Positions 6,984-54,070 of a stretch of 64,000 nt of DNA are shown here, one piece after another (position 1 is the first letter of the stretch; every line of letters starts with the position of its first letter). The notes below the pieces were generated by a model that was not told where the DNA came from, did not search any database, and saw only the letters and a list, made by a program, of their open reading frames with translations. The position numbers and the translations under genes were made by a program. The stretch lies in IMG/VR virus record IMGVR_UViG_3300045988_144755. The stretch is one strand, 5' to 3'. Origin of the DNA: a virus.

Positions 6984-7004
6984 GGAACTTGCAAAGGAGC
7001 GAAC

Positions 7005-7565
7005 ATGGCGGCAGGCACTTCAATTTTTCTCCCGGTCATGGAATACAATGGGGATACTTGGCATCTCCAGTATGACCCTGAAAATCCGATGTCGGTACGT
7101 CCCGACTTGGTTGGCGGCAAAATCACCAATATGTCGTGTGCCCCGGTGAAGCTGCCCCGTCAGCATCCTGATAAGCAGTTCTATATGGTGGTCGTCAGCA
7201 TCCTGATGCCCGCCAGCATGGAGCCTTCTGGACGGGCTATCCCTGAAAAGCGTCTGCTCGGTTTCCGGGTGTATGACTATCTTCCGGCAAATCCGTCCAC
7301 CCTTGACGCTTTGAACCTCAATGAGATGGTTTTCTATATTGCAGAACCCCGCCCCGGCAGTGACGCGCAGACGCTTCTGGAAACAGTCCTTGGGCTTAAG
7401 GTGCAGGAACAGCCTGCGGCTGAAGCGGTGAATACGGACTGGACAAAGATGCTCATGCAGCAGGATGCCCCGGAGCCGCAGCCGGAACCAGTGGCCCCGC
7501 AGCAGCGTGCCTATACTGCGCCTCAGCAACATACCATGCAGTTGTCTGACGGAACGGTGAGGTAA
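7005..7565 (+). CDS. hypothetical protein
   Basis: AAGGAG RBS; Pro/Gln-rich C-terminus. Confidence 0.45.
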   Translation: MAAGTSIFLPVMEYNGDTWHLQYDPENPMSVRPDLVGGKITNMSCAPVKLPRQHPDKQFYMVVVSILMPASMEPSGRAIPEKRLLGFRVYDYLPANPSTLDALNLNEMVFYIAEPRPGSDAQTLLETVLGLKVQEQPAAEAVNTDWTKMLMQQDAPEPQPEPVAPQQRAYTAPQQHTMQLSDGTVR

Positions 7566-7570
7566 ACCTT

Positions 7571-7828
7571 ATGTCGCATGATCCTATTTATGATAAGGTA
7601 CTTGAGCGCGTTGTTACCAATGCGGAACATCTGATTTCCGTTCATGACAATGCGCAAGGGCTGCTGAATGTGGCGATGCGTGGGGCTATGCCGTGGGCTA
7701 CCCCTTTGGTTATGAAGGGTGTTCTGCCTTCTGTGGATAAGTTGGAAGTGCTGTGTACACAGCTTCTGGCGATTGTTATGAGAAGTGACCCTTCGGTTAT
7801 GCAGGCCGAGGAAAAGAATACTAAGTAG
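7571..7828 (+). CDS. hypothetical protein (85 aa)
   Basis: GAGG RBS; tightly packed between neighbouring genes. Confidence 0.4.
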   Translation: MSHDPIYDKVLERVVTNAEHLISVHDNAQGLLNVAMRGAMPWATPLVMKGVLPSVDKLEVLCTQLLAIVMRSDPSVMQAEEKNTK

Positions 7829-7837
7829 GGGGAATTT

Positions 7838-8827
7838 ATGCCTCGCAAAATTCCTAAGCCAGTACAGCAGTTTCGCGGGACGACTGCGCAGCACGCTACC
7901 TATACTGGCCCAGAGGGTGAAATCACCGTTGATACCACAAAGCACACGGCAGTTGTGCATGATGGGCAGACGGCTGGCGGCTTCCCTTTGATGCGGGAGC
8001 ATGACATTGTCGATGATGTGCAGATTACGGCATCTGTCGGCACTGCTGAGGCTATTTGGAATGTGTCTGTCGCTGTCGCTGATGGTGACGGTAGTTGGAC
8101 TGCTCCTTTGGCCTTGAGCATCCAAGGCAAAGTTAATACGCCCATTGCAAGGGTCGTGAACGCGCAGCCCGGTGCTGACCATCTTGGAGGCGTGCGGGTT
8201 GTCTACAAGGGGGAAACGCAGCAGGCACAGACTGGTTTCTCTCAGACTGGCGGGACGGCAAATTTCTCGTTCACTGACGGGACTACTTGTGCGGTGGTTG
8301 CTGCGGCTGAATCTGATGGGAAACAGGCTATCACGTTTACGTTCACGTTTGCCGCTACTGCCAGTGGGCCGTTCCTGTGTGTTTCTGGCGTGCGCAAGAA
8401 TGTGGCCTATGAAGTTGCCGATCCGCTCCTGTCTCAAGACCCGATGAACGCCCTTACCGCTGGCACTGACGGTAAGATTATGCTCGACGGTTCTGGTCTG
8501 GACAAGAGCTATCTTCCGCTGTATTTTCCCTTTGAAAGTGATGAAATAGTGCCGGAAATCCATACGTTCTTCCCTGACCATTGCAGGGTCATTCTGGTGG
8601 ATGGCCTTCAGTCTGATGGAACGAGCGTGGATGCTCTGGGCATCACGGTTCAGCTCGATGGGGACAGTGAGGGCACCTCGGCTGTGACGCTCAAGAATGG
8701 GCAGATTGACAGCGATGGCGCTTTTGCGGGAAAGGCTGTAGTCATTCGGTGTTCTGGGCGTACTACGGAGACGTGGGTTTCTGCGTTGCTTCGTCTGACC
8801 CCCACAATGCTGGCGTCCGATTTATAG
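7838..8827 (+). CDS. tail fibre protein paralog with Mtd_N-like N-terminal domain
   Basis: N-terminus VQQFRGTTAQHATYTGPEGEITVDTTKHTAVVHDGQTAGGFPLMREHD is nearly motif-identical to the BPP-1 Mtd N-terminus and paralogous to 3977-5320. The C-terminal part is unrelated to the paralog. Confidence 0.65.
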   Translation: MPRKIPKPVQQFRGTTAQHATYTGPEGEITVDTTKHTAVVHDGQTAGGFPLMREHDIVDDVQITASVGTAEAIWNVSVAVADGDGSWTAPLALSIQGKVNTPIARVVNAQPGADHLGGVRVVYKGETQQAQTGFSQTGGTANFSFTDGTTCAVVAAAESDGKQAITFTFTFAATASGPFLCVSGVRKNVAYEVADPLLSQDPMNALTAGTDGKIMLDGSGLDKSYLPLYFPFESDEIVPEIHTFFPDHCRVILVDGLQSDGTSVDALGITVQLDGDSEGTSAVTLKNGQIDSDGAFAGKAVVIRCSGRTTETWVSALLRLTPTMLASDL

Positions 8828-8850
8828 CATTCACGCACGATAAGTTTGTA

Positions 8851-8893
8851 AGTTCCCGATTTTTTTACCCAGAAAAGTCGGGAACTTTTTATT
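8851..8893 (+). terminator. rho-independent terminator
   Basis: Stem AGTTCCCGA / TCGGGAACT with a loop, followed by TTTTTATTT; lies after the stop at 8827. Confidence 0.6.
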
Positions 8894-8909
8894 TATATTT
8901 GGAGGGTTT

Positions 8910-10493
8910 ATGGACAGTTTGCTTTGTGGTTATCTGCGGTTTGGTAAGCCTTTGGAAAAGCAAAGTTTGCTTTTTGTAGTAGATACTGAAGCTACTACAT
9001 CAGGAGGAGTACAAACGGCAAACCCAGTTCATGCTTTTCCTAGGCTATCTAGCGGTAATTTATCTACCGCTACTTTAACTATAGATTGGGGTGATGGTAC
9101 TTCGACAACTATTCCAAAGAATACACCATACGATAATAATTACTTTACTGATTATTCCACGCATACATATGAAGCTCCCGGAAAATATATTGTAACTGTA
9201 GAGGCGTATGATTTTTCTTCTTGTTCCTTTGGCGTAAATTCTAATACGTCTGCCGCATTTTCAAAATTAAAACTGTGGCGGGATACAGTAATTAGCATAG
9301 GCCCAGAAGATGCAGAAGAATATTCTTTGCCTTGTATGAAGAGCGATTTTTCATATGCTTTTGCTAGTTGTATGAAATTGACCAAAGTACCATTCGGATT
9401 ATTTAAGAATAATCCGATGATTACTGATTTTTATAGTGTATTTTATTTTTGTACAGCATTAACTGAAATTCCAGAAGATTTATTCGCGTATACTGATAAA
9501 GTTACTAATTTATCTTTTGCTTTTTGTAATTGTATAAAATTGACAGGGCCTATCCCGGAAGGGTTGTTCGCTAATAATCCCGCTGTAACGTCATTTGACA
9601 ATATATTCCAGCAATGTACAGAGTTAACAGGGCCTATCCCGGAAGGGTTGTTCGCTAATAATCCTGCTGTAACGTCATTTGACAATATATTCCAGCAATG
9701 CACAAAGCTATCAGGGTCTATCCCGGAAGGGTTGTTCGCTAATAATCCTGCTGTAACGTCATTTAACTACACATTCTACGAGTGTTTAGGATTAACTGGT
9801 ACTATTCCTGAAGGGCTGTTCGCTAGTAACCCTGATGTAACGTCATTTGATAATACATTTGTGCGCTGCGCAGGGTTGTCAGGGTCTATTCCTGAAGGGC
9901 TGTTCGCCAATAATCTTGCTGTAACGTCATTTGATAGTACATTCATGCAATGTGCAGGGTTAACAGGGTCTATCCCAGAAAATTTGTTCGCCAATAACAC
10001 TGCTGTGACTTCATTTGATTCTGTATTTTATGCTTGCTACTCGTTAGCAGGAGATATTCCTGAGAATTTATTTATTCATAATAATGAAGTAACTTCATTT
10101 GCTGGTGCATTTTTTGCTTGTAGAGAATTAACAGGGGCTATTCCTAGCGGTTTATTCTCTAGCAAGACTAAACTAACTTCTGTTGAACGTGTGTTTGAAG
10201 GATGCACAGGATTAACGGGGGCTATTCCTGAAGAACTTTTTGCTAGTAGTCCTTTAATCACTTCATTCAGTTATGTGTTTTCTGAATGTACAGGGTTAAC
10301 GGCGGTACCTAAAGCACTTTTTGAAGAAAATATAAATGCTGTAACTTTTATTGAGACATTTTATGGTTGTTCTGGTATAACAAGTGAAGTTCCTGAGCTG
10401 TGGATTTCACACCCGGATGCGACAGGCACATACTGCTATTTGCGCTGCACCAATGCCGCCAACTACGCTGATATTCCCGCTGATTGGAGATAA
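8910..10493 (+). CDS. BspA-type leucine-rich-repeat surface protein (tandem ~28-aa repeats)
   Basis: GGAGGG RBS. Repeats of L(T/S)G(P/S)IPEGLFANNPAVTSFDNIFQQCT..., as in BspA-type LRR proteins. The region is markedly lower in GC than its flanks. Confidence 0.6.
   Translation: MDSLLCGYLRFGKPLEKQSLLFVVDTEATTSGGVQTANPVHAFPRLSSGNLSTATLTIDWGDGTSTTIPKNTPYDNNYFTDYSTHTYEAPGKYIVTVEAYDFSSCSFGVNSNTSAAFSKLKLWRDTVISIGPEDAEEYSLPCMKSDFSYAFASCMKLTKVPFGLFKNNPMITDFYSVFYFCTALTEIPEDLFAYTDKVTNLSFAFCNCIKLTGPIPEGLFANNPAVTSFDNIFQQCTELTGPIPEGLFANNPAVTSFDNIFQQCTKLSGSIPEGLFANNPAVTSFNYTFYECLGLTGTIPEGLFASNPDVTSFDNTFVRCAGLSGSIPEGLFANNLAVTSFDSTFMQCAGLTGSIPENLFANNTAVTSFDSVFYACYSLAGDIPENLFIHNNEVTSFAGAFFACRELTGAIPSGLFSSKTKLTSVERVFEGCTGLTGAIPEELFASSPLITSFSYVFSECTGLTAVPKALFEENINAVTFIETFYGCSGITSEVPELWISHPDATGTYCYLRCTNAANYADIPADWR
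9541..9792 (+). repeat. Three near-identical 84-bp tandem repeats inside the LRR gene (more degenerate copies continue to about 10300)
   Basis: Units 9541-9624 and 9625-9708 differ at only a few positions; the third unit 9709-9792 has a diverged 3' end. Confidence 0.8.
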
Positions 10494-10522
10494 GGTATAC
10501 CCATAACCAAGGAGCGATTGCT

Positions 10523-10693
10523 ATGGATTCATCCCCGATTGAGCCCCCTGTTCAGTGCCAGCCTGTAGTTGTTCAGTGTACGTGCTGCCAGTCGGTGCGG
10601 CAGAATGAAGAGCTTGACCCAATCGGGGGTGTTTTCCTTGTTCTGTTTATAGTGTTTGCCGCTTCTCTGGGCGTATGGTTACATAGGAGTTGA
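10523..10693 (+). CDS. small putative membrane protein (57 aa)
   Basis: GGAG RBS before the ATG at 10523; C-terminal hydrophobic segment VFLVLFIVFAASLGVWL. The track ORF from 10484 has no RBS. Confidence 0.35.
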   Translation: MDSSPIEPPVQCQPVVVQCTCCQSVRQNEELDPIGGVFLVLFIVFAASLGVWLHRS

Positions 10694-10708
10694 GGCTGCG
10701 AAATAAAA

Positions 10709-10741
10709 GCTCCCTACCCGATGAAGGTAGGGAGCTTTTTT
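10709..10741 (+). terminator. rho-independent terminator
   Basis: GCTCCCTACC-cgatgaa-GGTAGGGAGC followed by TTTTTT. It lies immediately upstream of the silent cassette and of IR-L. Confidence 0.75.
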
Positions 10742-10762
10742 ACGGGCCTCGCCTTTTTCATA

Positions 10763-10812
10763 GGCGGCACCTCCACGGTATCGTTCAGTGTGAGTGCCTC
10801 GACATATGCGCT
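10763..10812 (+). repeat. IR-L: 50-bp inverted repeat (49/50 match to 12128-12177), encodes GGTSTVSFSVSASTYAL in frame
   Basis: ggcggcacctccacggtatcgttcagtgtgagTgcctcgacatatgcgct matches the reverse complement of 12128-12177, with a single T/C difference at 10795. Confidence 0.85.
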
Positions 10813-10822
10813 CACGTTAACA

Positions 10823-11561
10823 TCCCCGACCAATGTAAAGACTAGGGTTCCTGAGCCTGTTACTTTTAATGTAACAAAAAATAATAAACCTTATACTGGC
10901 CCGGTGCAGCTTACTTCTAATATCTCACAAGTACCTGCACAAACTATTAATGCACAAAATGGTGTTGGGTCTACGACTATTACTTTTACAGTACATGGAG
11001 ATTATATTATTTATTTGTCTGTTGGCGATTTGACTACACAATATAATTATTCGACTACAGCTTTAACTTACGAATATGTTAATCTTGGTGACGATATAAC
11101 TGGATGGACTTGCCCGCCATCTGCTCCTTTGTATCTTTATTGGCATGGCGTGCGTGTTTACCAAGCTAATGGCCCGGATACTACATCAACACGTATTCAA
11201 GCAAGTAATGGTAAAGTATATTACAAAGGAGTACACCAATCAATGTATAGTTACTCTATTGCAGAATATGACCATTAATGGCGCGTCCACCACGATTGCA
11301 GGGGAGGCGAAGCCCGGCCCAACCTATCTGTATGATAATGAGCATGTTTGGACTGTTTCCAGAACTAACCTTCCCGGAGGGATGGAGTTCAATTCGGTCT
11401 TTTGTATTTGGGGTGGTCAGTCTATTGCAAATACTATGGACTTGGATGCTACTTCGGTGGTTGGTTCTGATGGATATACATACCTTCGCGGGGAATATCA
11501 GGAACAAGAAGTGAGTGGGTCTACCACAAACAGCCATTACTCCATAGCCAGACAAGAATAA
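10823..11561 (+). pseudogene. silent alternative C-terminal cassette for the Ig-repeat fibre (no start codon or promoter, low GC; frame break near 11265-11278)
   Basis: Frame A (10763-11278) continues the IR-encoded peptide for ~150 codons to a TAA at 11276. Frame B (ATG at 11268, to 11561) encodes MTINGASTTIAGEAKPGPTYLYD...YTYLRGEYQ...YSIARQE. This is homologous to the C-terminus of the - strand gene (GNGASTTIAGEAKPEPVYKYDD...HTYLRGELK...YAIARQV). The track ORF starting at 10721 begins inside the terminator hairpin. Confidence 0.5.
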
Positions 11562-11568
11562 AACAGTT

Positions 11569-11595
11569 CCGCCCGCTACATTTAGTAGCGGGCGG
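11569..11595. terminator. bidirectional hairpin between convergent coding ends
   Basis: CCGCCCGCTAC-attta-GTAGCGGGCGG, 11-bp perfect stem, lying between the + cassette stop (11561) and the - gene stop (11602). Confidence 0.55.
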
Positions 11596-11601
11596 ATTCA
11601 T

Positions 11602-14600
11602 TTATACCTGCCGTGCTATGGCATATTTATGTGTTCTTGTGTACGACTGGTCATTCGTTTCTTTCAGTTCTCCACGAAGATATGTATGACCATCAATACC
11701 CTCGGTAGGAGTATCAGTATCTCCCCGACCGCCATTATAAGCGACCATCTGTCCTTCATAGAACAATATGACAAAAGATTCCCCTATACTACCGTCAGGA
11801 GACCAAGTACTCTGCCATGTCCAACTATTGCCATCATCATACTTGTACACAGGTTCGGGCTTTGCCTCCCCTGCAATCGTGGTGGACGCGCCATTGCCAG
11901 AAGCATCAGTAAAGGACACGGTATACGAACCTCCATTCGCATTGGTGCTGGTTAAAGTTTCAGTGAATTGCCCTGCCGAATTGGTGGCCTTCGCCCCGGT
12001 GGTGCCGCCAGAAAGACCGCCAAAGCTCGTTACGCTAACCCCGCTGGTGATGGGGTTGCCGTTGCGTTTGCAAGTGAAGGTGACGGCTGTAGCGGTATTG
12101 TACGCCAGCGTGTTCGGGCTTGCCGAAAGCGCATATGTCGAGGCGCTCACACTGAACGATACCGTGGAGGTGCCGCCGCCAAACGAGAGAGTCACGGTTT
12201 TGCTGCCTATGGACGTTGCCGTCAGGGAGACGGTGAACTTGCCACCGGATGCTGTTGCCGAGGCAGGGCCAGAAAGCCCGGAGCTGTACGACAGACTGAC
12301 GGAGCCAGCGTAGTTGGCGTTGTTCTTCTTGACCGTGAAGGTGACGGAGTCGGGGTCGTTGGTGTAGAGCTGAGAGATGTTTGCCGAAGCAGCGTAAGTA
12401 GCGGCTGCCACCGTAAATGTTGCCGTTGCTGACCCACCGCCGAACGAGACGGTGACGGTTTTATTGCCCGTGGTGGTAGCGGTCAGCTTGTTCGTGCATT
12501 TGCCGTCAGTGGCAGTTGCCGAGGTGCTGCCGGAAAGCCCAGAGGGAAGCGAGAAGGTAACGGCACCATCATAAGCGACGTTGTTCCGCTTCACGGTGAA
12601 CGTCACATTGGAAGCCAAATCTTCCGTCAGGGCTGTGGGCGAAGCCGATACTGTGTATGTAGCTGCCGATACGGTGAAGGCAATGGCGTCTGAGCCACCG
12701 CCGTAGGTCAGAGTGATATTGCCTGCTGTAGTTCCGCTTGCTGCCACTGAGATGGTAAACTGACCAGAAGCGTTTGCCGTGGCAGATGCCGGGCCACTGA
12801 GGTTTCCGCTGTATTTGATGGTGACAGCCCCGGCATAAACTGCGTCGTTCTTCTTCACAGTGAAGGTGACGGACTTGCTGTTGTAGGCTTGGACGCTGGT
12901 GCTGTTGGCAGAGGCCGTGTAGGTGGCTGCCGAGATGGTCATGGTATCGGACGCATTCCCGCCGCCGAAGGTAGCTTTGATGGTACCCGTTCCGGTGGCG
13001 TCTGCGGATACGTTGATGGTGAACTGACCAGAGGCGTTCGCTGTGGCGGATGCCGGGCCAGAAAGCCCACCGCTGTACGTCAGCGTCACAGCGCCAGCGT
13101 AGGCCGCATTGTTCCGCTTCACGGTGCCAGTGATGGACTTTGTTTCATCAACCCGGATGGTGGTAGGACTGACGACGAAGGAGTAGGTGGACGCTGTGAC
13201 GGATACGGCGTCAGTCGCTGACCCACCACCAAAGGTAAACGTCAGGGTCTTGTTCCCGGCTGTGGTGGCGGTAGCCGTGAGTTTTACCACACCATCGGTT
13301 GCCGTAGCGGATGTGGTGCCGGAAATGCCCGTGGGATACTTCACGGTGACGGCACCGGAATAGTTCTTGCCATTGCGTTTCACGGTAGCGGTGATGGTGC
13401 CGGAGACGTTGGTCTTGAGCGCAGCCGAGGTGATTTCAGCGGCATAGGTCGCAGCCTGAGTATCCACCGTGTAGGAGGCGCTTCCGCCGCCGAAGGTGGC
13501 TTTCACGGTGCCGTCTGCGGTTCCGGTTGAGGTCAACGTGATGCTGAACTGCCCAGAGGCATTGGAGGTAGCCTTTGTAGGCGTACCAGTGATGCCGCCA
13601 GAGTAGGCCAGCGTAACGGCCCCGGCATATGCCTTGCCGTTGCGGGTAACAGTGATGGTGTAGTCAGCTTCCTCGTAGGCGGTGATAGTCTTGCTGCTGG
13701 CGTTGATGGCATACGTGGCGGCAGCAACGGTGATGTCCGCCGTATCCGTCCAGTCATCAACCTTGACCGTCAGCGTTTCCGTTCCGGTATCCTCATAGGT
13801 CGCCTTGTACGTGTACTTGCCTGCGGAGAATGTGACCGAGGTGCCGTTGATGGTGCCCTTTCCGGCGTATGCCTTGCCGTTCCGGGTAACGGTCACAACG
13901 GTGGAACCCGCCTCATACTGCGTAAATTCATCGTTGGAGATTGCCAGCGTGTAGGTAGCGGCGGTTACGGTCGCGGACAGTTTCACGCTGCCGCCACCAT
14001 AGGTTGCGGTGATTGTCCCGCTGCCCACGGTATTGCCTGTGATGGTGAACGTCCCGGTGCCGGAAGAGTTGGTGGTGACTTTCGTATCACCGGATACGCC
14101 GCCGGAGTAGGCCAGCGTGATGGCACCAGCATAGGCTTTTCCGTTCCGTTTTGCGGTGATTGTGACTTCTGCGTCTTCAAACCGCTGAACAGTTTTAGGC
14201 GTGATGCTTGCCGTATAGGTGGCTTCAGTGACTGTGACGGATACAGCATCACTGACAGTTCCGCCCCCGAAGGTGGCGCTGATGGTAGACGCGCCTGCGG
14301 TAGCGCCTGTGACGGTGATGGACACGAGGCCGGACGCATTCGAGGTTGTGGATTTTGTGCTGCTGGTAATGTTGCTGTTATGCGCGAGGGTGACGGCTCC
14401 CTGATACGGTTTTCCGTTTCGCTTGACCGTGAAGCTGACGGCCTCAGATTCGTATTCCTGCACCGTGTAGTCTTCAGCTTCAACGCTGTAGGTTGCCGCA
14501 GCTACAGTGACGGACAGCGTGATGGTTTGCCCATCAATGACCAACTTCAGGGATTGCTTCCCGGAAGTATTGTACGTTGTCGTATAGGTGGCCTTGCCGT

Positions 14601-40586: not shown

Positions 40587-41191
40587 TGCAGATTGAATAC
40601 TTCGCCACCTATCTGACCGACAGGCTTGAGCCTGAAGGTACGGACTTGCCGATCTGCAACTCAGCGGTTGCCGATCTGCTGGCACTTATGCCGGATGAGG
40701 ACGACTATATTTACCTTGCGCTCAAGGGGGATTCGCACTATGAAGTTGTGCGGGCGTACAACGCTGGCGGTACTATCCTCATTGAGCGGGCACAGGAAGG
40801 GACGACTGCCGTACTGCATCACTACGGCACATGCGTTTCCGCAATCTCTCCTCTGGTTGCGGCTGTAGTGAAAGACTTGATCTGCAACTATACCTGCTGT
40901 GAGGAAGAGTGCCCGTGCGACCCCGTCGCATTCGGCGGCGCATCGTTGCCCGACTTGCAGGAGGGTGTCGCATGGGAAGGTGCCGTGGTATTCTCCGGCG
41001 ACCTGCCCATGACCATCGGCATCAGCAATGCGCCCGGCTGGATGGAGGCCACGACCTCGAACAACATCATCAAGCTGTCCGGTACGCCGACATCCAGTGA
41101 GGACGTACACTTCAGCGTAGCGGCAACCAACTGCAACGGAACGCACATCGTTACGGAATCGCTTACCATCAATGCCAAGCAACTCCCTTAG
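40583..41191 (+). CDS. hypothetical protein, last gene of + strand operon
   Basis: ATGA overlap; Cys cluster [13 protein letters not shown]. Confidence 0.45.
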
Positions 41192-41243
41192 CATTGTGTA
41201 ACATATTCTTATCATGCAGGGCCAAACCCTCATGACAAGAAAA

Positions 41244-41285
41244 CCCCCGTGTAGACTTCGCTCCAGCTACACGGGGGTCTTTTTG
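41244..41285 (+). terminator. rho-independent terminator of late operon
   Basis: CCCCCGTGTAG-12nt-CTACACGGGGG followed by TCTTTTTG. Confidence 0.7.
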
Positions 41286-41353
41286 CCCGCATGGGTGAAT
41301 CACCAACTTGGGTGATTTAATTAAGTTTTTTAAATTTGCGGTAAATTACCGTA

Positions 41354-41485
41354 GCTGATTTTATTGACAATTTTTAAACCCGGCGTTTCACCGGGTTTAA
41401 ATAATCTTGCAGGGTTACACTATAAACACACCCCGTTTACTTCAATCAGGTTATCGGGTGATTTTATTGATAATTTAACTGAGCG
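41354..41485. repeat. 18/20-bp direct repeats TGATTTTATTGA(C/T)AATTT (41354-41373 and 41466-41485), plus GGGTGAT motifs at 41291, 41309 and 41464
   Basis: Seen directly in the AT-rich junction between the convergent operons. Confidence 0.6.
41376..41398. terminator. bidirectional hairpin AAACCCGG-cgtttca-CCGGGTTT flanked by T and A runs
   Basis: Perfect 8-bp stem with TTTTT 5' and AAA 3'. Confidence 0.5.
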
Positions 41486-41512
41486 CAAAATTGCGCTCAG
41501 TTAAATTACTTC
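41483..41512. promoter_or_regulatory. 30-bp palindrome TTAACTGAGCGCAA-AA-TTGCGCTCAGTTAA
   Basis: 14-bp arms; could be a protein-binding site or a bidirectional terminator near the 3' end of the - strand operon. Confidence 0.45.
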
Positions 41513-41648
41513 GACACCAATTAGTTTTACACCTGATCCGTATACTGTACGGGGTAGGTTAAAAGTTCATCTTCATCCAGCATTAGCTCTGACCCTTGGA
41601 TTACCGTCAAGATTGCTGAGGATAATCTTTTCGTCTTCGCCTAGTACC

Positions 41649-41990
41649 CTATCTCCACACCAGCTCAGGCCCTGCATCCGATGCTTTCTGCCCATGCAGT
41701 TTGCACCTCAGCTCTTCCACTTCCTGCTGGCACTTGTACTGGCTCGCCCGAAGGGTCATGTTCTCCGTAGACAGGAACGATATGCGGTCATTCAATACCC
41801 GTATCCGTTCGTCACGCTCCTCAAGCTCGCCACTGAGTTTGGCCCGCAGAGCTTCACACTCCTCCCGTGCCGCTATCAGACGCTGTTGCAGGACTACTGC
41901 GGTGTGCTTGTAATCCGATAAGTCTTTCTGCAAACGCATGACATAGCCAGCCAAGTCATATGTGTCGTCACTCGTCTTCTTCTGCATCAT
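41649..41990 (-). CDS. coiled-coil hypothetical protein (113 aa)
   Basis: Last gene of the - operon. Confidence 0.45.
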   Translation of the reverse strand: MMQKKTSDDTYDLAGYVMRLQKDLSDYKHTAVVLQQRLIAAREECEALRAKLSGELEERDERIRVLNDRISFLSTENMTLRASQYKCQQEVEELRCKLHGQKASDAGPELVWR

Positions 41991-49828: not shown

Positions 49829-50527
49829 TCACAGCCCGCACAACGGCGTGTTGTAGAAGTCGCAATACTTGCAGAACCTGTTCTTCCTGCTAGGGAAATC
49901 CTTATTGGCAATAGCCTTGTCCATCTCAGACATCAGCTCCACGACATCCTGCACAAGCTGGATGCCATTGCGGAAATCAATGGTCATGTCCACCGTCTCG
50001 CCCGCATCCACATACCAGTAGGCATAGGAAACAACCGGGCGGTCGAAAAGGATATGGCACAGCAGAGCTTCCACTCTAAGCTGGAAGTCGTCCGTATCCC
50101 ACTTCTTGCCCGTCTTGAAGTCCACCACATGCACGGGCATGTCAGGGTACTTCAGCGGGGGGACAAGGATCATATCGGCCTTGGCCCGCAGGTAGGCATC
50201 ATCATCCCACCATCCAGTCTTCGCCCACTGCCGGGATACCGTGAGTTCCTTTTCGATATAGAGCCTGTGCTCCATAGTCTCCACAAGCTCACGGCCCCAA
50301 AGGATTTGTTCCTGCACATACCCTTGGCACAGATCATCAGGCCACTTCGTTACCGAATCGTAACCATCAGACATGGCTTCTTCCAGAGCCTTATGGACAA
50401 GGCTCCCCCGGCTCTTCGCCACTGAAGCCTTCCACTTAATCTCCTTCGTGATGGACTGCCCCTCGAACCGACGCGGGCACAGCCTGTAGTTCATCATGTT
50501 GGATGGAGAGAATACAAACATCATCAA
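49829..50527 (-). CDS. Cas4/RecB-like PD-(D/E)xK exonuclease with 4-Cys cluster
   Basis: N-terminal Cys (YRLCPRRF), catalytic VDFKTGK, and C-terminal CKYCDFYNTPLC, the Cys-x(n)-CxxC-x5-C arrangement of Cas4/AddB-type Fe-S nucleases. Confidence 0.6.
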   Translation of the reverse strand: MMMFVFSPSNMMNYRLCPRRFEGQSITKEIKWKASVAKSRGSLVHKALEEAMSDGYDSVTKWPDDLCQGYVQEQILWGRELVETMEHRLYIEKELTVSRQWAKTGWWDDDAYLRAKADMILVPPLKYPDMPVHVVDFKTGKKWDTDDFQLRVEALLCHILFDRPVVSYAYWYVDAGETVDMTIDFRNGIQLVQDVVELMSEMDKAIANKDFPSRKNRFCKYCDFYNTPLCGL

Positions 50528-50531
50528 CCCT

Positions 50532-51509
50532 CTACGCTATGGTGTAATCGTCACCGACTTTGGAATCACAGGCCACGGGGAAACCGGGGAGCCAATCGGG
50601 AACGCTCGACATATCCGCTTCCATGAGCGACTGCACCCGCTCGGCATCGGCTTCCGGCACCACGGTAATCCATGCGTCATGCACATTGGCCTTGAGCGGG
50701 ATGCCATGCTCATACATCCGGCACGCCTGCCACATCAGCAACTGGAAAGCCAAGCCTTGGATCAGGTTCTCACACAGCAGGCCGCCGTAGATTTTGGTGT
50801 CCACCATGTTCTTCCCGAACGGGCGCTTGTAGAAGAACTCCTCCCGCCGCCCATCCGTCTGCACATGCAGGCCGGGATACCGAAGGATATACCCTGACGG
50901 CATCTTGACGCTAGGAGCCATGTTCTCCGCCCCATCGTACAGGTTGCCCTTAATGAAGGGCATGGCCTTGAACTGGAAGTAATCGTCGTTTGGCCCGCCA
51001 AATGTCCCTTCGGAACCTAGGTACAGCGCCCGGATAACTTCAAGGCAACGGCCCCAGAACTGGACGATGTTGCCATGCGTCAGACGGTAGACACTGTGGG
51101 CGTGCTTCGCCATCTGGTGGTGCTGTTCCAAATCAGCATGGAGCTTCACGCCGTCGCCCAAGAGGGAGTTGCTGAACTTCCTCCAGCCTACCTGATAGCC
51201 AGCGGACAAGATGGCTTTCTTACCAACATTCCGGTACATGGTCATACGGGGGTCGCCCGCCTTGTTCCCGGCTTTGATTTCCTTCCACGGCACGTTGAAG
51301 ATATTCTCGGCAAGTTGGGAATACGGGTCTTCCCCGGTGCGGAACTTATCCAAGAGGTCGTCCTGCCGGGCAATGTATGCCAACAGGCGCGCTTCAATCT
51401 GACTTGAGTCAGCGGCTACGACCTTATACCCCTTCGGGGCGACGATGGCCCGGCGAAGCGTAAGCATCTTCGGGTTGCGTTTACTAAGATTCTGCATTGT
51501 GTTCAGCAT
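50532..51509 (-). CDS. DNA polymerase I (family A), C-terminal palm/fingers fragment
   Basis: Motif A AADSSQIEARLLA; motif B-like KKAILSAGYQ; motif C NVHDAW. Begins at MLNTMQNLSKRNP, corresponding to the PNLQNIP region of Pol I. No strong RBS. Confidence 0.8.
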   Translation of the reverse strand: MLNTMQNLSKRNPKMLTLRRAIVAPKGYKVVAADSSQIEARLLAYIARQDDLLDKFRTGEDPYSQLAENIFNVPWKEIKAGNKAGDPRMTMYRNVGKKAILSAGYQVGWRKFSNSLLGDGVKLHADLEQHHQMAKHAHSVYRLTHGNIVQFWGRCLEVIRALYLGSEGTFGGPNDDYFQFKAMPFIKGNLYDGAENMAPSVKMPSGYILRYPGLHVQTDGRREEFFYKRPFGKNMVDTKIYGGLLCENLIQGLAFQLLMWQACRMYEHGIPLKANVHDAWITVVPEADAERVQSLMEADMSSVPDWLPGFPVACDSKVGDDYTIA

Positions 51510-52263
51510 AGGTCGTTACTCTATACCCGTTCTTGCGAACTGCTGTACGTCACCGTACAGATCAGACTATATCATGAGCGGTGCCATATACCGCCCCCGT
51601 GCGCTTCCACCCACTTGAGTGTACTCTCTTTCGAGATAGTCGTTGCACCTTCTATACCACGCCGCAATGCGGCATGTAGTCGTGTATGTGCGGCATTTGA
51701 AATAAGCACCAAATTAGAGAAATCATTATTCAGTTTATCCATATCACAATGATGTACTGAATATCCATCTGGTATAGCAGACAATCCCAAATGCTCACAC
51801 ACTACAACATGATGTTCATAGATATGCCGCTGAGATTCTTTGCTCGTATACCATGCTGGTTTTAAGACTAGCTTATACCCATACTTAGTAATACACCCAC
51901 CTTTATAATTGTGGTGTGTATCGCCAGTCTTGCCAGTCATTGGGCTGTTATCCCCTAGCTTGGACTGATGGTACCGCTTCCGCTTCAGACTGTGTATTTC
52001 ATCTGCGCTCATATGATTATGAATGATCTGATGCACACAGAAATAGCTTCTACCTATATGCTCTGCAATTTCTTCCACGGTCAGATTAGTATAACGATAC
52101 CTAAACAATACTTCGTTTATTTCAGCCTGTGTTACACGATTCCAAACTGGCATTATATACCTCTCTTCAACGGTAGATAAGCAGTTGTGGTATAGCTTGG
52201 CTCAGGATTGTCTTACATAGTAAGATGTTCCCTGAGTTCACACGGTTTTACAACCTCCAAAAA
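51510..52263 (-). mobile_element. low-GC insertion carrying an HNH homing endonuclease that splits the polA gene (free-standing HEG or intron)
   Basis: GC drops to roughly 40% versus about 60% in the flanks. Inserted exactly between Pol I TGRLSS-like and PNLQNIP-like motifs. Contains a hairpin CTGTACG-gtga-CGTACAG before the downstream polA fragment. Confidence 0.55.
51572..52153 (-). CDS. HNH homing endonuclease
   Basis: HHVVVCEHLGLSAIPDGYSVHHCDMDKLNNDFSNLVLISNAAHTRLH (HNH His/Asn/His pattern with Cys ligands); AT-rich codon usage. Confidence 0.8.
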   Translation of the reverse strand: MPVWNRVTQAEINEVLFRYRYTNLTVEEIAEHIGRSYFCVHQIIHNHMSADEIHSLKRKRYHQSKLGDNSPMTGKTGDTHHNYKGGCITKYGYKLVLKPAWYTSKESQRHIYEHHVVVCEHLGLSAIPDGYSVHHCDMDKLNNDFSNLVLISNAAHTRLHAALRRGIEGATTISKESTLKWVEAHGGGIWHRS

Positions 52264-53454
52264 TTAAAGGTTGGTTGCATCACTTGCACCCTCAGAGTTC
52301 CCCGCCGTCAGTCGGCTCGTGTGAGCCTTGAAGCAGTTCAGCATCACGGGCAGAGCCTTGCCCGACTTGGCGAGGGTGACGAACCGAAGCGCCCGGCTCA
52401 TCTGGATGGAGCTGTTGTTCTCCAGCCGGGACTGCACCAGCAGGGCAATGCGGTCGTCCTCATGGTTCTGCAAGTTCACGAACTCGTAGTCGTTCTTCGA
52501 CAGGGCGGGGGCCAGCACTTCATAGGATGCCGGATCCGCCAGCATCCCGACGACCTCGTTGATGCGCTTCTGTTTCGCATCGTCGCCAGCGTATCCATTG
52601 ACGACAGCATAACCTGCACCGGAGAGCGAAACATACTCTGCCTCCAGCTTCGCCCGTGCCGTCTTTGTCCTCGCCGCGCTCACCTTCATGGGCGGCTCCA
52701 TGCCGAGCGTCCGCATCATGGAGCAGAACTTGTCCGCACTGCGGATGTTCTGGAGGAACTCTTCCTTCGTGTGGAAATGGAAGATGCGGGACAGGTCAAA
52801 CCGCGCCCGTTCAGCCCGTTCCTCCAGCTCCTTAACGTAGGTATCGAGCAGGCTCGGCACCAACCGGAAGATGGGTTGCGTCCCCATCCGGCAGATGATG
52901 TTGGAAAACAGGATGGCATCCTTCGTAACCAGCCCTGACTCCAGCATGGTGTGCATGTTCTCGGAGCACTGCGTCACATCGTCGGCGCAGTATTGCTTGA
53001 AGAACTTCCGTTCTTCGGACGTGAAGTCATGGGGCCAATGCTTTCCGTCACTGACCACAGTGCCCGCCTTCTTCTCCCCGGTGCCGAGCAACTTCGTCAA
53101 CCGGGCGTGGCTCTCGTTCCCCAATCGGGACAGGCCAATCCATCGGGAGATGGTCATTGTGTCGAGGCACAGGTACGGCACAATCCCGTAATGCTCGGAG
53201 AGGATGAGCGCGTCGAACCCGTTGAGGTTGTGCCCCACAACGATGCAGTCCTTGCGGTTCGCAAGGTCGAGGGCTTGGAGCACGGCGGGTATCTCATGCG
53301 TCTCGAACACCTCAGTCTTGCCCCGGTCAATGCGGATGCCCATGAGCTGGACTTCAAACCGGGGGTCGCGAATGTATTCAATCGGCCCCATCTTGCTCAG
53401 GGTATAATCCTGATGCCGCCAGTAGGATTCATAGTCGATTGTGATTATATGCAC
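52264..53454 (-). CDS. DNA polymerase I (family A), N-terminal fragment with 3'-5' exonuclease domain
   Basis: Exo I ITIDYESYW; Exo II VGHNLNGFDALIL; Exo III YCADDVTQ. Ends ...HTSRLTAGNSEGASDATNL, like the TGRLSS motif preceding PNLQNIP. Confidence 0.75.
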   Translation of the reverse strand: MHIITIDYESYWRHQDYTLSKMGPIEYIRDPRFEVQLMGIRIDRGKTEVFETHEIPAVLQALDLANRKDCIVVGHNLNGFDALILSEHYGIVPYLCLDTMTISRWIGLSRLGNESHARLTKLLGTGEKKAGTVVSDGKHWPHDFTSEERKFFKQYCADDVTQCSENMHTMLESGLVTKDAILFSNIICRMGTQPIFRLVPSLLDTYVKELEERAERARFDLSRIFHFHTKEEFLQNIRSADKFCSMMRTLGMEPPMKVSAARTKTARAKLEAEYVSLSGAGYAVVNGYAGDDAKQKRINEVVGMLADPASYEVLAPALSKNDYEFVNLQNHEDDRIALLVQSRLENNSSIQMSRALRFVTLAKSGKALPVMLNCFKAHTSRLTAGNSEGASDATNL

Positions 53455-53497
53455 AATGTCGCTCCAGTTTATGGCCCCCCGAAGGGGGCCGCTCTGC

Positions 53498-54070
53498 TCA
53501 ATGGAACACTGCCATGATCTGTGCCTGTTCCTGCGGGGTCAGGGACAGGACATCGACCAGCACTTCCTGCGGGAGCTCGCTCTTCGCCACGAGGTCTTCA
53601 ATAGTGTTGACGCCAGCCTGAACGAAGGACAATACATAGCGAAGCAGGTCGCCCGTCATGACGACATCATGCTTTACGATGACGGACGCACGGTCAACGC
53701 CGATGTCGTCCACCGAGAACAGGCTCGGCTTCACGGGCGCACCCTGCGCAGCGGGCGCGGGGGCAGGCTCGGCAACTTCAGGCATGGATTCCGCCGCCTT
53801 CTTCTTGGAGGCCCGCTTCTTGGGGGCGGGGCGTTCCGCCGCTTCCAATGCGGCGAGGCGGTCGAGGATGTTCTCAAGCGTGGCCTTGTCGGTGCCGCCG
53901 CCCTGCTGGAGAACCATCTGTTCCAGTGCCGTACAACGGCGCTCAAGCCTGTCCACATCGCCGCCCATCTGATGGAGCGTGGCTTCTGCATCCTTCAGCC
54001 GCTTGATGATGGTGGGCAGAAGCTGGTTCAACAACACGTCCAACGGATTGCTCTGTACTTCGTCGCTCAT
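53498..54070 (-). CDS. hypothetical protein (190 aa)
   Basis: Coiled-coil N-terminus; Ala/Pro/Lys-rich linker. Confidence 0.45.
   Translation of the reverse strand: MSDEVQSNPLDVLLNQLLPTIIKRLKDAEATLHQMGGDVDRLERRCTALEQMVLQQGGGTDKATLENILDRLAALEAAERPAPKKRASKKKAAESMPEVAEPAPAPAAQGAPVKPSLFSVDDIGVDRASVIVKHDVVMTGDLLRYVLSFVQAGVNTIEDLVAKSELPQEVLVDVLSLTPQEQAQIMAVFH

Follow-up and report, generated by a model that had tools for sequence, protein, structure and literature searches.

A probable mobile group I intron with an HNH endonuclease gene in the family-A DNA polymerase gene of an uncultured phage

The DNA polymerase locus described here lies in a 64,000-nucleotide stretch of viral DNA (IMG/VR record IMGVR_UViG_3300045988_144755), hereafter called the window. 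Three minus-strand open reading frames (ORFs) of 396 (52264-53454), 193 (51572-52153) and 325 amino acids (50532-51509) were found in the ORF list, all at the coordinates given by an earlier note, whose figures of a 754-nt gap between the outer ORFs and of 110-nt and 62-nt non-ORF flanks around the middle one are also arithmetically right. The insert had been described as low in GC, and the GC content is indeed 0.36-0.43 across about 51600-52250 versus about 0.57 in the flanks. Pfam assigned the middle ORF to HNH_3 (E=6.5e-9, passing the cutoff) and the downstream ORF to DNA_pol_A (E=1.2e-18), in line with the proposed HNH endonuclease and family-A polymerase, and the polymerase motifs expected in the downstream ORF are present (A, ADSSQIEARL; B, RNVGKKAILSAGYQVG; C, NVHDAW). 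The Exo I-III motifs claimed for the upstream ORF could be recognised by eye (ITIDYES, HNLNGFDALIL and YCADD), but Pfam gave no match for this N-terminal ORF; the exonuclease assignment therefore rests on these motifs together with the precomputed PF01612 domain of a homologue (P0026, 53% identical), the only one in which this domain is present. The polymerase shows at most 32% identity to that of any cultured phage (best, Pseudomonas phage KPP25, by tblastn), and megablast found no phage genome close to the whole region. The features of the locus are as follows:

52267-53454, minus strand: polymerase exon 1, 396 codons with a GTG start (ORF list), encoding the exonuclease-like N-terminus and the N-terminal part of the polymerase; colinear with four uninterrupted alleles (L005, L006, L030 and L031) up to 52267
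51495-52266, minus strand: predicted group I (IA2) intron of 772 nt, absent from intron-less alleles and matched by Rfam RF00028
51572-52153, minus strand: HNH homing-endonuclease ORF of 193 aa, in the P6 loop of the intron (Pfam HNH_3; orthologues)
50532-51494, minus strand: polymerase exon 2, 320 codons plus stop, beginning CAG AAT CTT (Q-N-L)

The insert divides the conserved N-L-Q-N motif of the polymerase: N-L closes exon 1, whose 3' end reads ACC AAC CTT (T-N-L), and Q-N opens exon 2, which places the insertion site between Leu and Gln, after the equivalent of Leu676 of E. coli Pol I. A comparison with intron-less homologues had been suggested as a way of defining this site, and four alleles set it exactly, as the DNA alignments showed that these near-identical phages (L005, L006, L030 and L031) are without precisely 52266-51495. 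The first three intron bases, UAA, also terminate the exon-1 ORF, and the last intron base is an omega-G (51495), just before the CAG of exon 2. Splice sites predicted from the P1 U.G pair and the omega-G give a 716-aa product, which has 97-99% identity at 100% coverage to four uninterrupted 716-aa proteins; the predicted exon junction is identical to that of one of them (P0004, SDATNLQNLSKRN), and the Klenow alignment runs unbroken across it. The downstream ORF had been thought to start exactly at NLQN; its codons 1-5 (MLNTM, 51495-51509), however, are intron sequence. The observation that it lacks a good ribosome-binding site holds, with no Shine-Dalgarno sequence before 51509. The ATGs of this ORF fall within the intron tail ...CUGAACA(C/U)AAUG, and a similar ...GAACA... 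tail closes most related introns of unrelated phages, three of which end in ...CUGAACA(C/U)AAUG. Because the apparent ATGs are intron tail and are not preceded by a Shine-Dalgarno sequence, we assign no separate start to exon 2. An intein was considered and rejected, as the insert opens with a TAA stop and the HNH ORF begins 113 nt in with its own start, unfused to the exon-1 frame. Pfam found no Hint or LAGLIDADG domains in the long homologues P0005 and P0011.

Around and overlapping the HNH ORF, the intron contains the following predicted ribozyme elements:

52267-52273, minus strand: P1 5' strand, the last seven exon nucleotides CAACCUU (duplex prediction, Infernal alignment); at the 5' splice site, its terminal U52267 is the U of the U.G pair
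52251-52263, minus strand: internal guide sequence (IGS), consisting of UUUUG (P10 5' strand) and then GAGGUUG (P1 3' strand, 52251-52257)
52239-52245, minus strand: P3 5' strand CCGUGUG, partner 51597-51603
52202-52235, minus strand: P4-P5-P4' (UCAGGG / UCUUAC-UAU-GUAAGA / UCCUGA), from a partial Rfam match and RNAalifold
52189-52201, minus strand: P6 5' strand GC-CAA-GCUAUACC, partner 51647-51658, with the ORF-bearing loop P6a next to it
51647-51658, minus strand: P6 3' strand GGUAUAG-AAG-GU, within the HNH ORF
51608-51646, minus strand: J6/7 and P7 5' strand (GCAAC-GACUA), P7.1, GUA linker and P7.2 (RNAalifold), invariant in 12 of 12 relatives
51597-51603, minus strand: P3 3' strand CGCACGG (RNAalifold, covariation, Infernal)
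51576-51596, minus strand: P8 hairpin GGGCGGU...ACCGCUC, with compensatory changes in 5 of 6 pairs
51565-51575, minus strand: J8/7 and P7 3' strand (AUGAU-AUAGUC; Infernal), including the HNH stop codon UGA (51572-51574)
51506-51560, minus strand: P9 (51543-51560, GUGA loop), P9.1 (51529-51540, GCAA loop) and P9.2 (51506-51527), from RNAalifold

Unguided RNAalifold on 12 ORF-deleted relatives recovered P3, P4, P5, P6, P7.1, P7.2, P8, P9, P9.1, P9.2 and P10. When P7, which forms a pseudoknot with P3, was added, 97.6% of the cells of the whole structure were paired across the 12 relatives versus 30-43% with slid partners. Compensatory double changes occurred in 28 of 62 pairs, compared with 9-12 pairs in the slid controls, and none of 500 shuffles reached the observed values. 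P3 showed a G-C to A-U compensatory change that splits the relatives 6 to 6; all six P6 pairs and 12 of the 17 pairs of P9, P9.1 and P9.2 carried compensatory changes, three compensatory cells were seen in P10, and P5, in the segment matching Rfam model positions 60-138, also covaried. P4, P7, P7.1 and P7.2 are invariant among the 12 relatives, which is consistent with a core but uninformative for covariation, and this invariance may come in part from protein-coding constraint. P1 was judged outside the column-based count, by duplex prediction for each sequence, because MAFFT misaligns it; the P1/IGS duplex was predicted in all 12 relatives, and the IGS tracks the exon sequence. Taken together, the insert has a P1 with a U.G wobble, an omega-G and a core made of the P3-P7 pseudoknot, P4-P6, P8 and P9, as expected of group I introns. 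Between P7 and P3' lie P7.1 (UCUC-GAAA-GAGA) and P7.2 (CACUC-AAGU-GGGUG), joined by a GUA linker (51608-51636), an arrangement that is the signature of subgroup IA2 (PMC3428280). P2 is absent from the intron, as it is from the validated intron of cyanophage Pf-WMP3.

The earlier note had regarded the flanks of the ORF as small for a ribozyme. This objection disappears because the ORF is housed in the P6 loop and shares its 3' end with the core: the last ~90 nt of the HNH ORF double as P6', J6/7, P7, P7.1, P7.2, P3' and P8, so that the ribozyme consists of about 190 nt of 5' and about 165 nt of 3' sequence, rather than the 110 and 62 nt counted previously. The covariance-model search proposed as a check gave an RF00028 match of 37.2 bits (E=3e-7) on the window, which is below the gathering threshold of 50 because the 500-nt ORF in P6 splits the model. 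A natural allele from which the HNH domain is deleted (L029), and whose ribozyme segments are identical to those of the window, scored 73.2 bits (E=1e-18) over the full-length RF00028 model, above the threshold that the window itself falls short of. A whole-window Rfam scan at the gathering threshold gave no match; a sensitive one found the polymerase intron and no further introns, and the window contains no tRNA genes. The standard gathering scan thus overlooks ORF-bearing phage introns of this kind, and the present call was rescued by sub-threshold split matches, intron-less homologues and ORF-deleted alleles.

Two alternatives had been left side by side: a self-splicing intron carrying its own endonuclease, and a free-standing homing endonuclease gene that split the polymerase into two separately translated subunits which assemble after translation, with no splicing. 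Free-standing endonuclease genes are known to break other genes into pieces, as mobE has done with nrdA in Aeromonas phage Aeh1; a run of three ORFs that each have a potential start codon, together with the low GC of the insert, would fit such an origin here. Against this, the ORF lies within, and overlaps, a full group I core that shows covariation, the allele that has lost the endonuclease domain still keeps a 367-nt ribozyme insert, the downstream ATGs lie in an intron tail similar to that of related introns and have no Shine-Dalgarno sequence, and the break would land within the conserved N-L-Q-N motif. With a ribozyme around the endonuclease gene and no independent translation signals for the downstream half, we give a two-subunit polymerase almost no credence. 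The covarying core, the exact boundaries and the Rfam score of the HNH-deleted allele support the self-splicing alternative instead, and the sequence evidence indicates that 51495-52266 is very probably a mobile subgroup-IA2 group I intron in a family-A polymerase gene. We infer that splicing of the RNA yields one complete polymerase, which would not be a two-subunit enzyme.

Another question is whether this intron could be a decayed, non-splicing relic and the polymerase a pseudogene, for instance because the phage is defective or the assembly faulty. Splicing is deduced here from sequence, the endonuclease has decayed in sister alleles, and the Rfam score of the window is below threshold, all of which would suit a relic. 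However, every helix is intact, four independent assemblies with divergent backbones have the same ribozyme sequence outside the ORF, without a single base difference, both exons are open with 97-99% protein identity to uninterrupted homologues, and the replication module around the polymerase is otherwise intact. A relic is accordingly very improbable.

For a functional intron, the following course of events can be proposed. The region would be transcribed whole as a single pre-mRNA, in which P1 would arise from pairing of the exon-1 CAACCUU with the guide GAGGUUG and would place the U.G pair at the splice site. Once the P3-P9 core has folded, an exogenous guanosine would attack after U52267, and the freed 3'-OH of exon 1 would then attack after omega-G 51495, with the short P10 aligning the exons. 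Ligation of ...T-N-L to Q-N-L-S-K-R... would restore N-L-Q-N and give a single 716-aa polymerase, while in unspliced RNA the leading UAA of the intron would halt translation. By analogy with characterised relatives, the HNH enzyme may, in a mixed infection, nick or cut polymerase alleles that lack the intron, close to the insertion site, and recombinational repair would then give the recipient the intron along with ~100-130 nt of the adjoining exon (homing).

The putative endonuclease has its own ribosome-binding site within the intron, a Shine-Dalgarno sequence GAGAGG at 52160-52165, 6 nt upstream of its ATG, and the codons for its C-terminus (GATTISKESTLKWVEAHG...) also form part of the ribozyme core. 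Full-length orthologues were found in phiL7 (gp45) and among the intron ORFs of PhAPEC5, APK32, PPWS1 and phiB1_1; at 39-56% identity, the protein of the window is the most divergent of its group, and its His, Asn and His residues align with those of the relatives. The structure of I-HmuI has been solved; a PDB sequence search with the HNH protein returned chance-level matches only, with I-HmuI not among them. Both the activity and the cleavage site of the enzyme are inferred, the former by analogy with characterised relatives.

To assess mobility, four intron-plus and four intron-less alleles (n=8) were compared. The intron-plus alleles are identical over ~240 nt of exon flank (-110 to +127 around the insertion site), whereas the same four differ elsewhere at 15-68 sites; three of the intron-less alleles differ from this flank haplotype at 22-26 of 237 nt, and outside the shared tract the backbone of the window is of the intron-less L006 type. 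In this small sample of eight alleles, a presence/absence polymorphism thus coincides with a shared flank on divergent backbones, which we interpret as the co-conversion footprint of homing, although general recombination could give such a mosaic. The endonuclease gene is intact in the window, frameshifted near its C-terminus in L028, interrupted by a nonsense codon in L007 and deleted in L029, and empty sites exist beside these. In L029, which has lost the endonuclease domain, the insert is 367 nt long and comprises just the ribozyme elements; Pfam gave no match for an extra gene in this allele.

These data also bear on whether the intron, while genuine, is no longer mobile, the flank haplotype having arisen by descent or ordinary recombination and the HNH protein being inactive or serving another role, such as that of a maturase. 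The divergence of the HNH protein within its family, an endonuclease activity predicted from sequence and the comparison of just eight alleles leave some room for this explanation. It is nevertheless unlikely, as the flank block is identical on four backbones that differ at up to 68 sites elsewhere and ends within ~130 nt on either side of the insertion site, the ORF of the window is intact with its HNH residues aligned to those of relatives, and the ribozyme persists in the allele without the ORF, making an obligatory role as a maturase less likely.

For the mobile intron, a further and more tentative scenario can be considered. Over the 30 nt around the insertion site, the intron-less alleles L006, L030 and L031 have 11 substitutions, with AT-rich codons; the sequences on the two sides of this site are GATGCAACCAACCTT and CAGAATCTTAGTAAACGC in the L005 type and GATTCAATTAATTTA and CAAAATTTGAGTAAACGT in the L006 type. 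Homologous introns occur at two PolA positions 6 nt apart, one following Pro674 and the other Leu676, as well as in an nrdD-like gene, and their endonucleases do not group by insertion site. It is possible, if doubtful, that this ribozyme-plus-HNH family is actively re-targeting, that the intron of this lineage is in mid-cycle, and that the L006/L030/L031 haplotype may have been selected for endonuclease resistance. In that case, the population would document, in nature, an arms race between intron and host as well as shifts of site via guide-sequence change.

For annotation, a single joined CDS for the polymerase (53454..52267 + 51494..50532, 716 aa) with an intron-encoded HNH endonuclease is the right entry for this locus, rather than a split or truncated polymerase. 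An HNH-bearing group I intron at a known insertion site is a well-known kind of selfish element; the allele series (intact, decayed, deleted, empty and with a co-conversion tract) illustrates the homing cycle and leaves current understanding unchanged.

Sequences similar to the 3' core occur in 175 phage records. The polymerase intron of Xanthomonas phage phiL7 (NC_012742), with the HNH ORF gp45, shares the insertion point between P-N-L and Q-N, known as 'site 676' (PMC3428280), so this type of IA2 intron is now extended to an uncultured phage lineage. Its 5' and 3' cores are homologous to those of the window, it has the same P1 (CAACCUU/GAGGUUG), UAA start and core order, with a compensated P3 (CUCCGUG/CGCGGAG), and its HNH ORF, 44% identical over its full length to that of the window, likewise lies in the P6 loop. 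It differs in the sequences of P5, P8, P9 and P9.x and is ~70 nt shorter, nucleotide similarity being confined to ~90 nt of the 3' core; its host polymerase is only distantly related and is annotated without an exonuclease domain. The PolA / HNH / PolA layout is also shared by Gamaleyavirus PhAPEC5/7, Acinetobacter Friunavirus (APK32 and others), Pseudomonas phiB1_1 and Pectobacterium PPWS1, with ~80% nucleotide identity in the 3' core and HNH proteins 46-50% identical. Their introns are unpublished or merely annotated, and our literature search found no account of that of PhAPEC5. The phiB1_1 intron shares site 676, whereas most introns of this set are at site 674; the host polymerases of the set belong to T7-like and N4-like lineages, whereas that of the window has no more than 32% identity to any from a cultured phage. 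The introns of the T7-like phages PhiI and W31, which encode I-TslI, are also of subgroup IA2 with the HNH ORF in P6a, but lie at site 881, elsewhere in the polymerase gene (PMC3428280, citing Bonocora & Shub 2004).

The earlier note aptly drew a parallel with Bacillus phage polymerase genes: the introns of SPO1, SP82 and Bastille are of group I, encode HNH nicking endonucleases (I-HmuI, I-HmuII and I-BasI) and interrupt the same family-A motif (PMC3428280). These introns of Gram-positive myoviruses are located at site 674, two codons upstream, rather than at 676 (PMC3428280). The Pf-WMP3 polymerase intron is experimentally self-splicing and encodes the nicking HNH endonuclease I-PfoP3I (PMC3428280). 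It differs from the intron of the window in its position two codons upstream, between P and N (site 674), in having no P9.1/P9.2 extension, and in its 161-aa endonuclease, which is only 39% identical. On the other hand, it shares the IA2 structure without P2, the GUA-joined P7.1 and P7.2, the initial UAA, a short P10 and an ORF that starts in P6a and extends through P7.2, and its 5' and 3' core sequences are homologous to those of the window.

The polymerase region of the window is occupied by three ORFs in a row, listed below as they were found in the ORF list.

52264-53454, minus strand: N-terminal polymerase ORF, 396 aa, GTG start, no match by Pfam
51572-52153, minus strand: middle ORF, 193 aa, HNH_3 by Pfam (E=6.5e-9)
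50532-51509, minus strand: downstream polymerase ORF, 325 aa, DNA_pol_A by Pfam (E=1.2e-18)

The GC content falls from about 0.57 to 0.36-0.43 over about 51600-52250. The ORF list, Pfam matches and GC profile bear out the earlier note, which described a polymerase split by a low-GC HNH insertion and correctly gave a 754-nt gap between the polymerase ORFs with non-ORF flanks of 110 and 62 nt. Two readings had been offered, namely a two-subunit polymerase or a self-splicing intron carrying its own endonuclease; the ribozyme core, intron-less alleles and a natural ORF deletion (contig L029) all point to the latter, with splicing predicted from sequence.

In a permissive Rfam scan of the region 50400-53600, two sub-threshold matches to the group I intron family RF00028 were obtained, one of 37.2 bits (E=3e-7) at 51543-51917 and the other of 15.8 bits at 52155-52235, the latter covering model positions 60-138 (P4-P6) only. 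These matches are the halves of a single predicted core parted by the HNH ORF: P1, P3, P4, P5 and the P6 5' strand lie 5' of the ORF, while the P6 3' strand, J6/7, P7, P7.1, P7.2, P3', P8, P7' and P9 lie within and just past its 3' end. The same bases encode the conserved C-terminus of the endonuclease (GATTISKESTLKWVEAHG) and form the catalytic core. Because the 3' half lies partly inside the ORF, the short flanks no longer speak against a group I core, which disposes of the objection raised in the earlier note. Within 52160-52201, as seen by eye, the P6 5' strand CUAUACC (52189-52195), whose partner in P6 is the distant GGUAUAG (51652-51658), could instead pair locally with a GGUAUA directly 3' of the endonuclease Shine-Dalgarno and reaching its ATG; such a pairing might tie translation of the endonuclease to the folding of the ribozyme.

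The splice sites were predicted first and then independently confirmed with uninterrupted homologues. P1 (CAACCUU paired with GAGGUUG, the terminal U facing G) sets the predicted 5' splice site after 52267, and the terminal G at 51495 gives a predicted exon 2 start of CAG AAT CTT. The predicted intron of 772 nt (51495-52266) opens with UAA, which serves as the exon-1 ORF's stop codon, and its removal would yield a 716-aa polymerase with the junction ...SDATNL/QNLSKRN..., restoring the N-L-Q-N motif. Searching a large protein collection with this product returned four uninterrupted 716-aa proteins (97-99% identity, 100% coverage), and the junction in the homologue P0004 is exactly the predicted one. 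When the encoding contigs (L005, L006, L030 and L031) were aligned at the DNA level, they missed precisely window 52266..51495, so that the comparison with intron-less homologues proposed in the earlier note fixes the insertion bounds exactly. Alignment of the spliced product with the Klenow fragment is unbroken over the junction and, counted on this alignment, places the insertion after the Leu676 equivalent. The two-subunit reading is unsupported: what look like start codons (ATGs) of the downstream ORF belong to the 3' tail of the intron, a tail that recurs in similar form in related introns from unrelated phages, and no Shine-Dalgarno was found ahead of them. The main practical value of these results is that the polymerase can be correctly annotated as a single joined CDS.

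A natural deletion bears on the same question. In L029, a close relative of the window's phage, a clean 405-nt (135-codon) deletion takes out the HNH domain and leaves intron nt 1-178 and 580-772, base-for-base the same as in the window. The resulting 367-nt mini-intron matches the full-length RF00028 model at 73.2 bits (E=1e-18; gathering threshold, 50 bits), and the Infernal alignment puts P1 and P3-P9 at the same places as our own assignment. Since the ribozyme is identical, the window's own ribozyme sequence reaches the threshold once the ORF leaves P6. The window's intron also serves to recall that introns with an ORF inside them are missed at Rfam's gathering cutoff. An intervening sequence of ribozyme elements alone is tolerated in an essential gene here, which fits poorly with a two-subunit polymerase and speaks against the HNH protein being an indispensable maturase. 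L029 (2580-3200; Logan SRR29680402 contig) also has an extra 206-aa gene right upstream of the polymerase start codon (between 53455 and 53497 in window terms), absent from the window and other alleles. Its product carries the motifs CKCDCG...SCGC...IDRID...NCRW, had no Pfam match and may be a free-standing homing endonuclease.

Eight alleles of the phage lineage were compared, four intron-plus (window, L007, L028 and L029) and four intron-less (L005, L006, L030 and L031). Around the insertion site, from -110 to +127, nothing distinguishes the four intron-plus alleles, while the rest of the gene shows 15-68 differences between them. L006, L030 and L031 depart from this flank haplotype at 22-26 of its 237 nt, 11 of the substitutions falling in the 30 nt that span the empty site; beyond the tract, the window is L006-like (13 and 11 differences). 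In these few sequences, the pattern is as expected if the intron travels between genomes and takes along some 100-130 nt of exon from either side. L005 is intron-less yet has intron-type flanks, and so represents either the ancestral allele, open to invasion, or an exact loss of the intron. The endonuclease gene is intact in the window, carries a +1 G in a G-run in L028 and a TCA>TAA nonsense codon in L007, and is deleted in L029; endonuclease activity and its cleavage site are putative. Around the empty site (equivalent to window 52282-52267 and 51494-51477), L006, L030 and L031 read TCA ATT AAT TTA/CAA AAT TTG instead of GCA ACC AAC CTT/CAG AAT CTT. These codons are AT-rich in a genome of 56% GC and alter two amino acids (A-T to S-I). 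Alleles of this type could not pair with the guide sequence of the intron to give P1, and may constitute an endonuclease-resistant haplotype.

DNA matches to known phages were confined to some 150 nt within the insert (51500-51651) and always lay between an HNH ORF and the second half of a polymerase gene, in unrelated lineages: N4-like Gamaleyavirus (in the annotators' own wording, 'DNAP split by an intron'), Acinetobacter Friunavirus, Pseudomonas phiB1_1 and Pectobacterium PPWS1. Further relatives came from a pattern scan of viral contigs. Twelve distinct introns were aligned with their ORFs excised (set A1), and unguided RNAalifold recovered P3, P4, P5, P6, P7.1, P7.2, P8, P9, P9.1, P9.2 and a P10. 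Once the P7 pseudoknot was included, 97.6% of the cells were paired, versus 30-43% with partners slid 1-3 columns, and compensatory double changes occurred in 28 of 62 pairs versus 9-12 in the slid controls; none of 500 shuffles reached the observed values. P4, P7, P7.1 and P7.2 are invariant, fitting the structure and contributing no covariation support. P1, which MAFFT misaligns, was checked sequence by sequence, and in every intron of the set the guide sequence complements its own phage's exon end. In L021 (IMGVR_UViG_3300042991_000128; about 9100-9900, reverse strand), no splice choice restoring P-N-L-Q-N gives U at -1 plus a terminal G: omega-G comes with C at -1, and U at -1 comes with U or A as the last intron base. 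An error in the sequence or a non-canonical splice site could account for this. In L010 (IMGVR_UViG_3300045988_015752, ~7000-7900), an intron that shares the 3' core sequence and bears a 196-aa ORF interrupts a different gene (exons ...FKMTAKYGNP/YFANYCNSELKPTD), which presumably resembles the anaerobic ribonucleotide reductase gene nrdD.

The polymerase gene is a selfish-element hotspot, and its family probably has inteins at two other conserved sites. P0005 (1087 aa), P0010 (1048 aa), P0011 (1016 aa) and about 20 further homologues of 1016-1087 aa are concerned, none in the window. The candidates lie at motif B in P0005 and P0010 (...KKAILS/CFEGSTLVLT...MLVHN/CGYQVG) and at a second site in P0011 (...FCEN/CIAAGTEVLT...VIVHN/CTQG), and by eye each begins with Cys, ends in His-Asn and is followed by Cys at +1; in P0005 and P0011, neither a Hint nor a LAGLIDADG domain was detected by Pfam. 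Elsewhere in the window, the largest low-GC island (8701-11850, minimum 0.32) holds a 527-aa ORF (8910-10493, plus strand) with weak DUF285 and PKD matches and a 185-aa ORF (10721-11278, plus strand) with no match, adjoins the gene, on the other strand, of a Big_1/invasin-like protein of 1134 aa, and looks like a horizontally acquired cassette amid structural genes. The stretch 41101-41700 (GC 0.37, no ORF above ~45 aa) separates the plus-strand structural module from the minus-strand replication module and might serve in regulation or as an origin.

This kind of element is well described, as is its site. The IA2 intron of cyanophage Pf-WMP3, experimentally shown to self-splice, lacks P2, has P7.1 and P7.2 joined by G-U-A, a short P10, UAA as its first three nucleotides and an ORF from P6a through P7.2 (Kong et al. 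2012; PMC3428280); the window's intron has all these features, and the core sequences are visibly homologous. Three intron sites are listed for phage family-A polymerases: 674 (SPO1, SP82, Bastille and Pf-WMP3), 676 (Xanthomonas phage phiL7) and 881 (PhiI and W31) (PMC3428280). Our collected relatives occupy both 674 and 676, and their endonuclease proteins do not cluster by site. The phiL7 intron lies at the identical ...P-N-L/Q-N... junction, its P1 is the same and its P3 is compensated, and phiL7 gp45 is orthologous to the window's HNH protein over the full length (44% identity); on these grounds, the window's intron joins the phiL7-type site-676 family as a new member.
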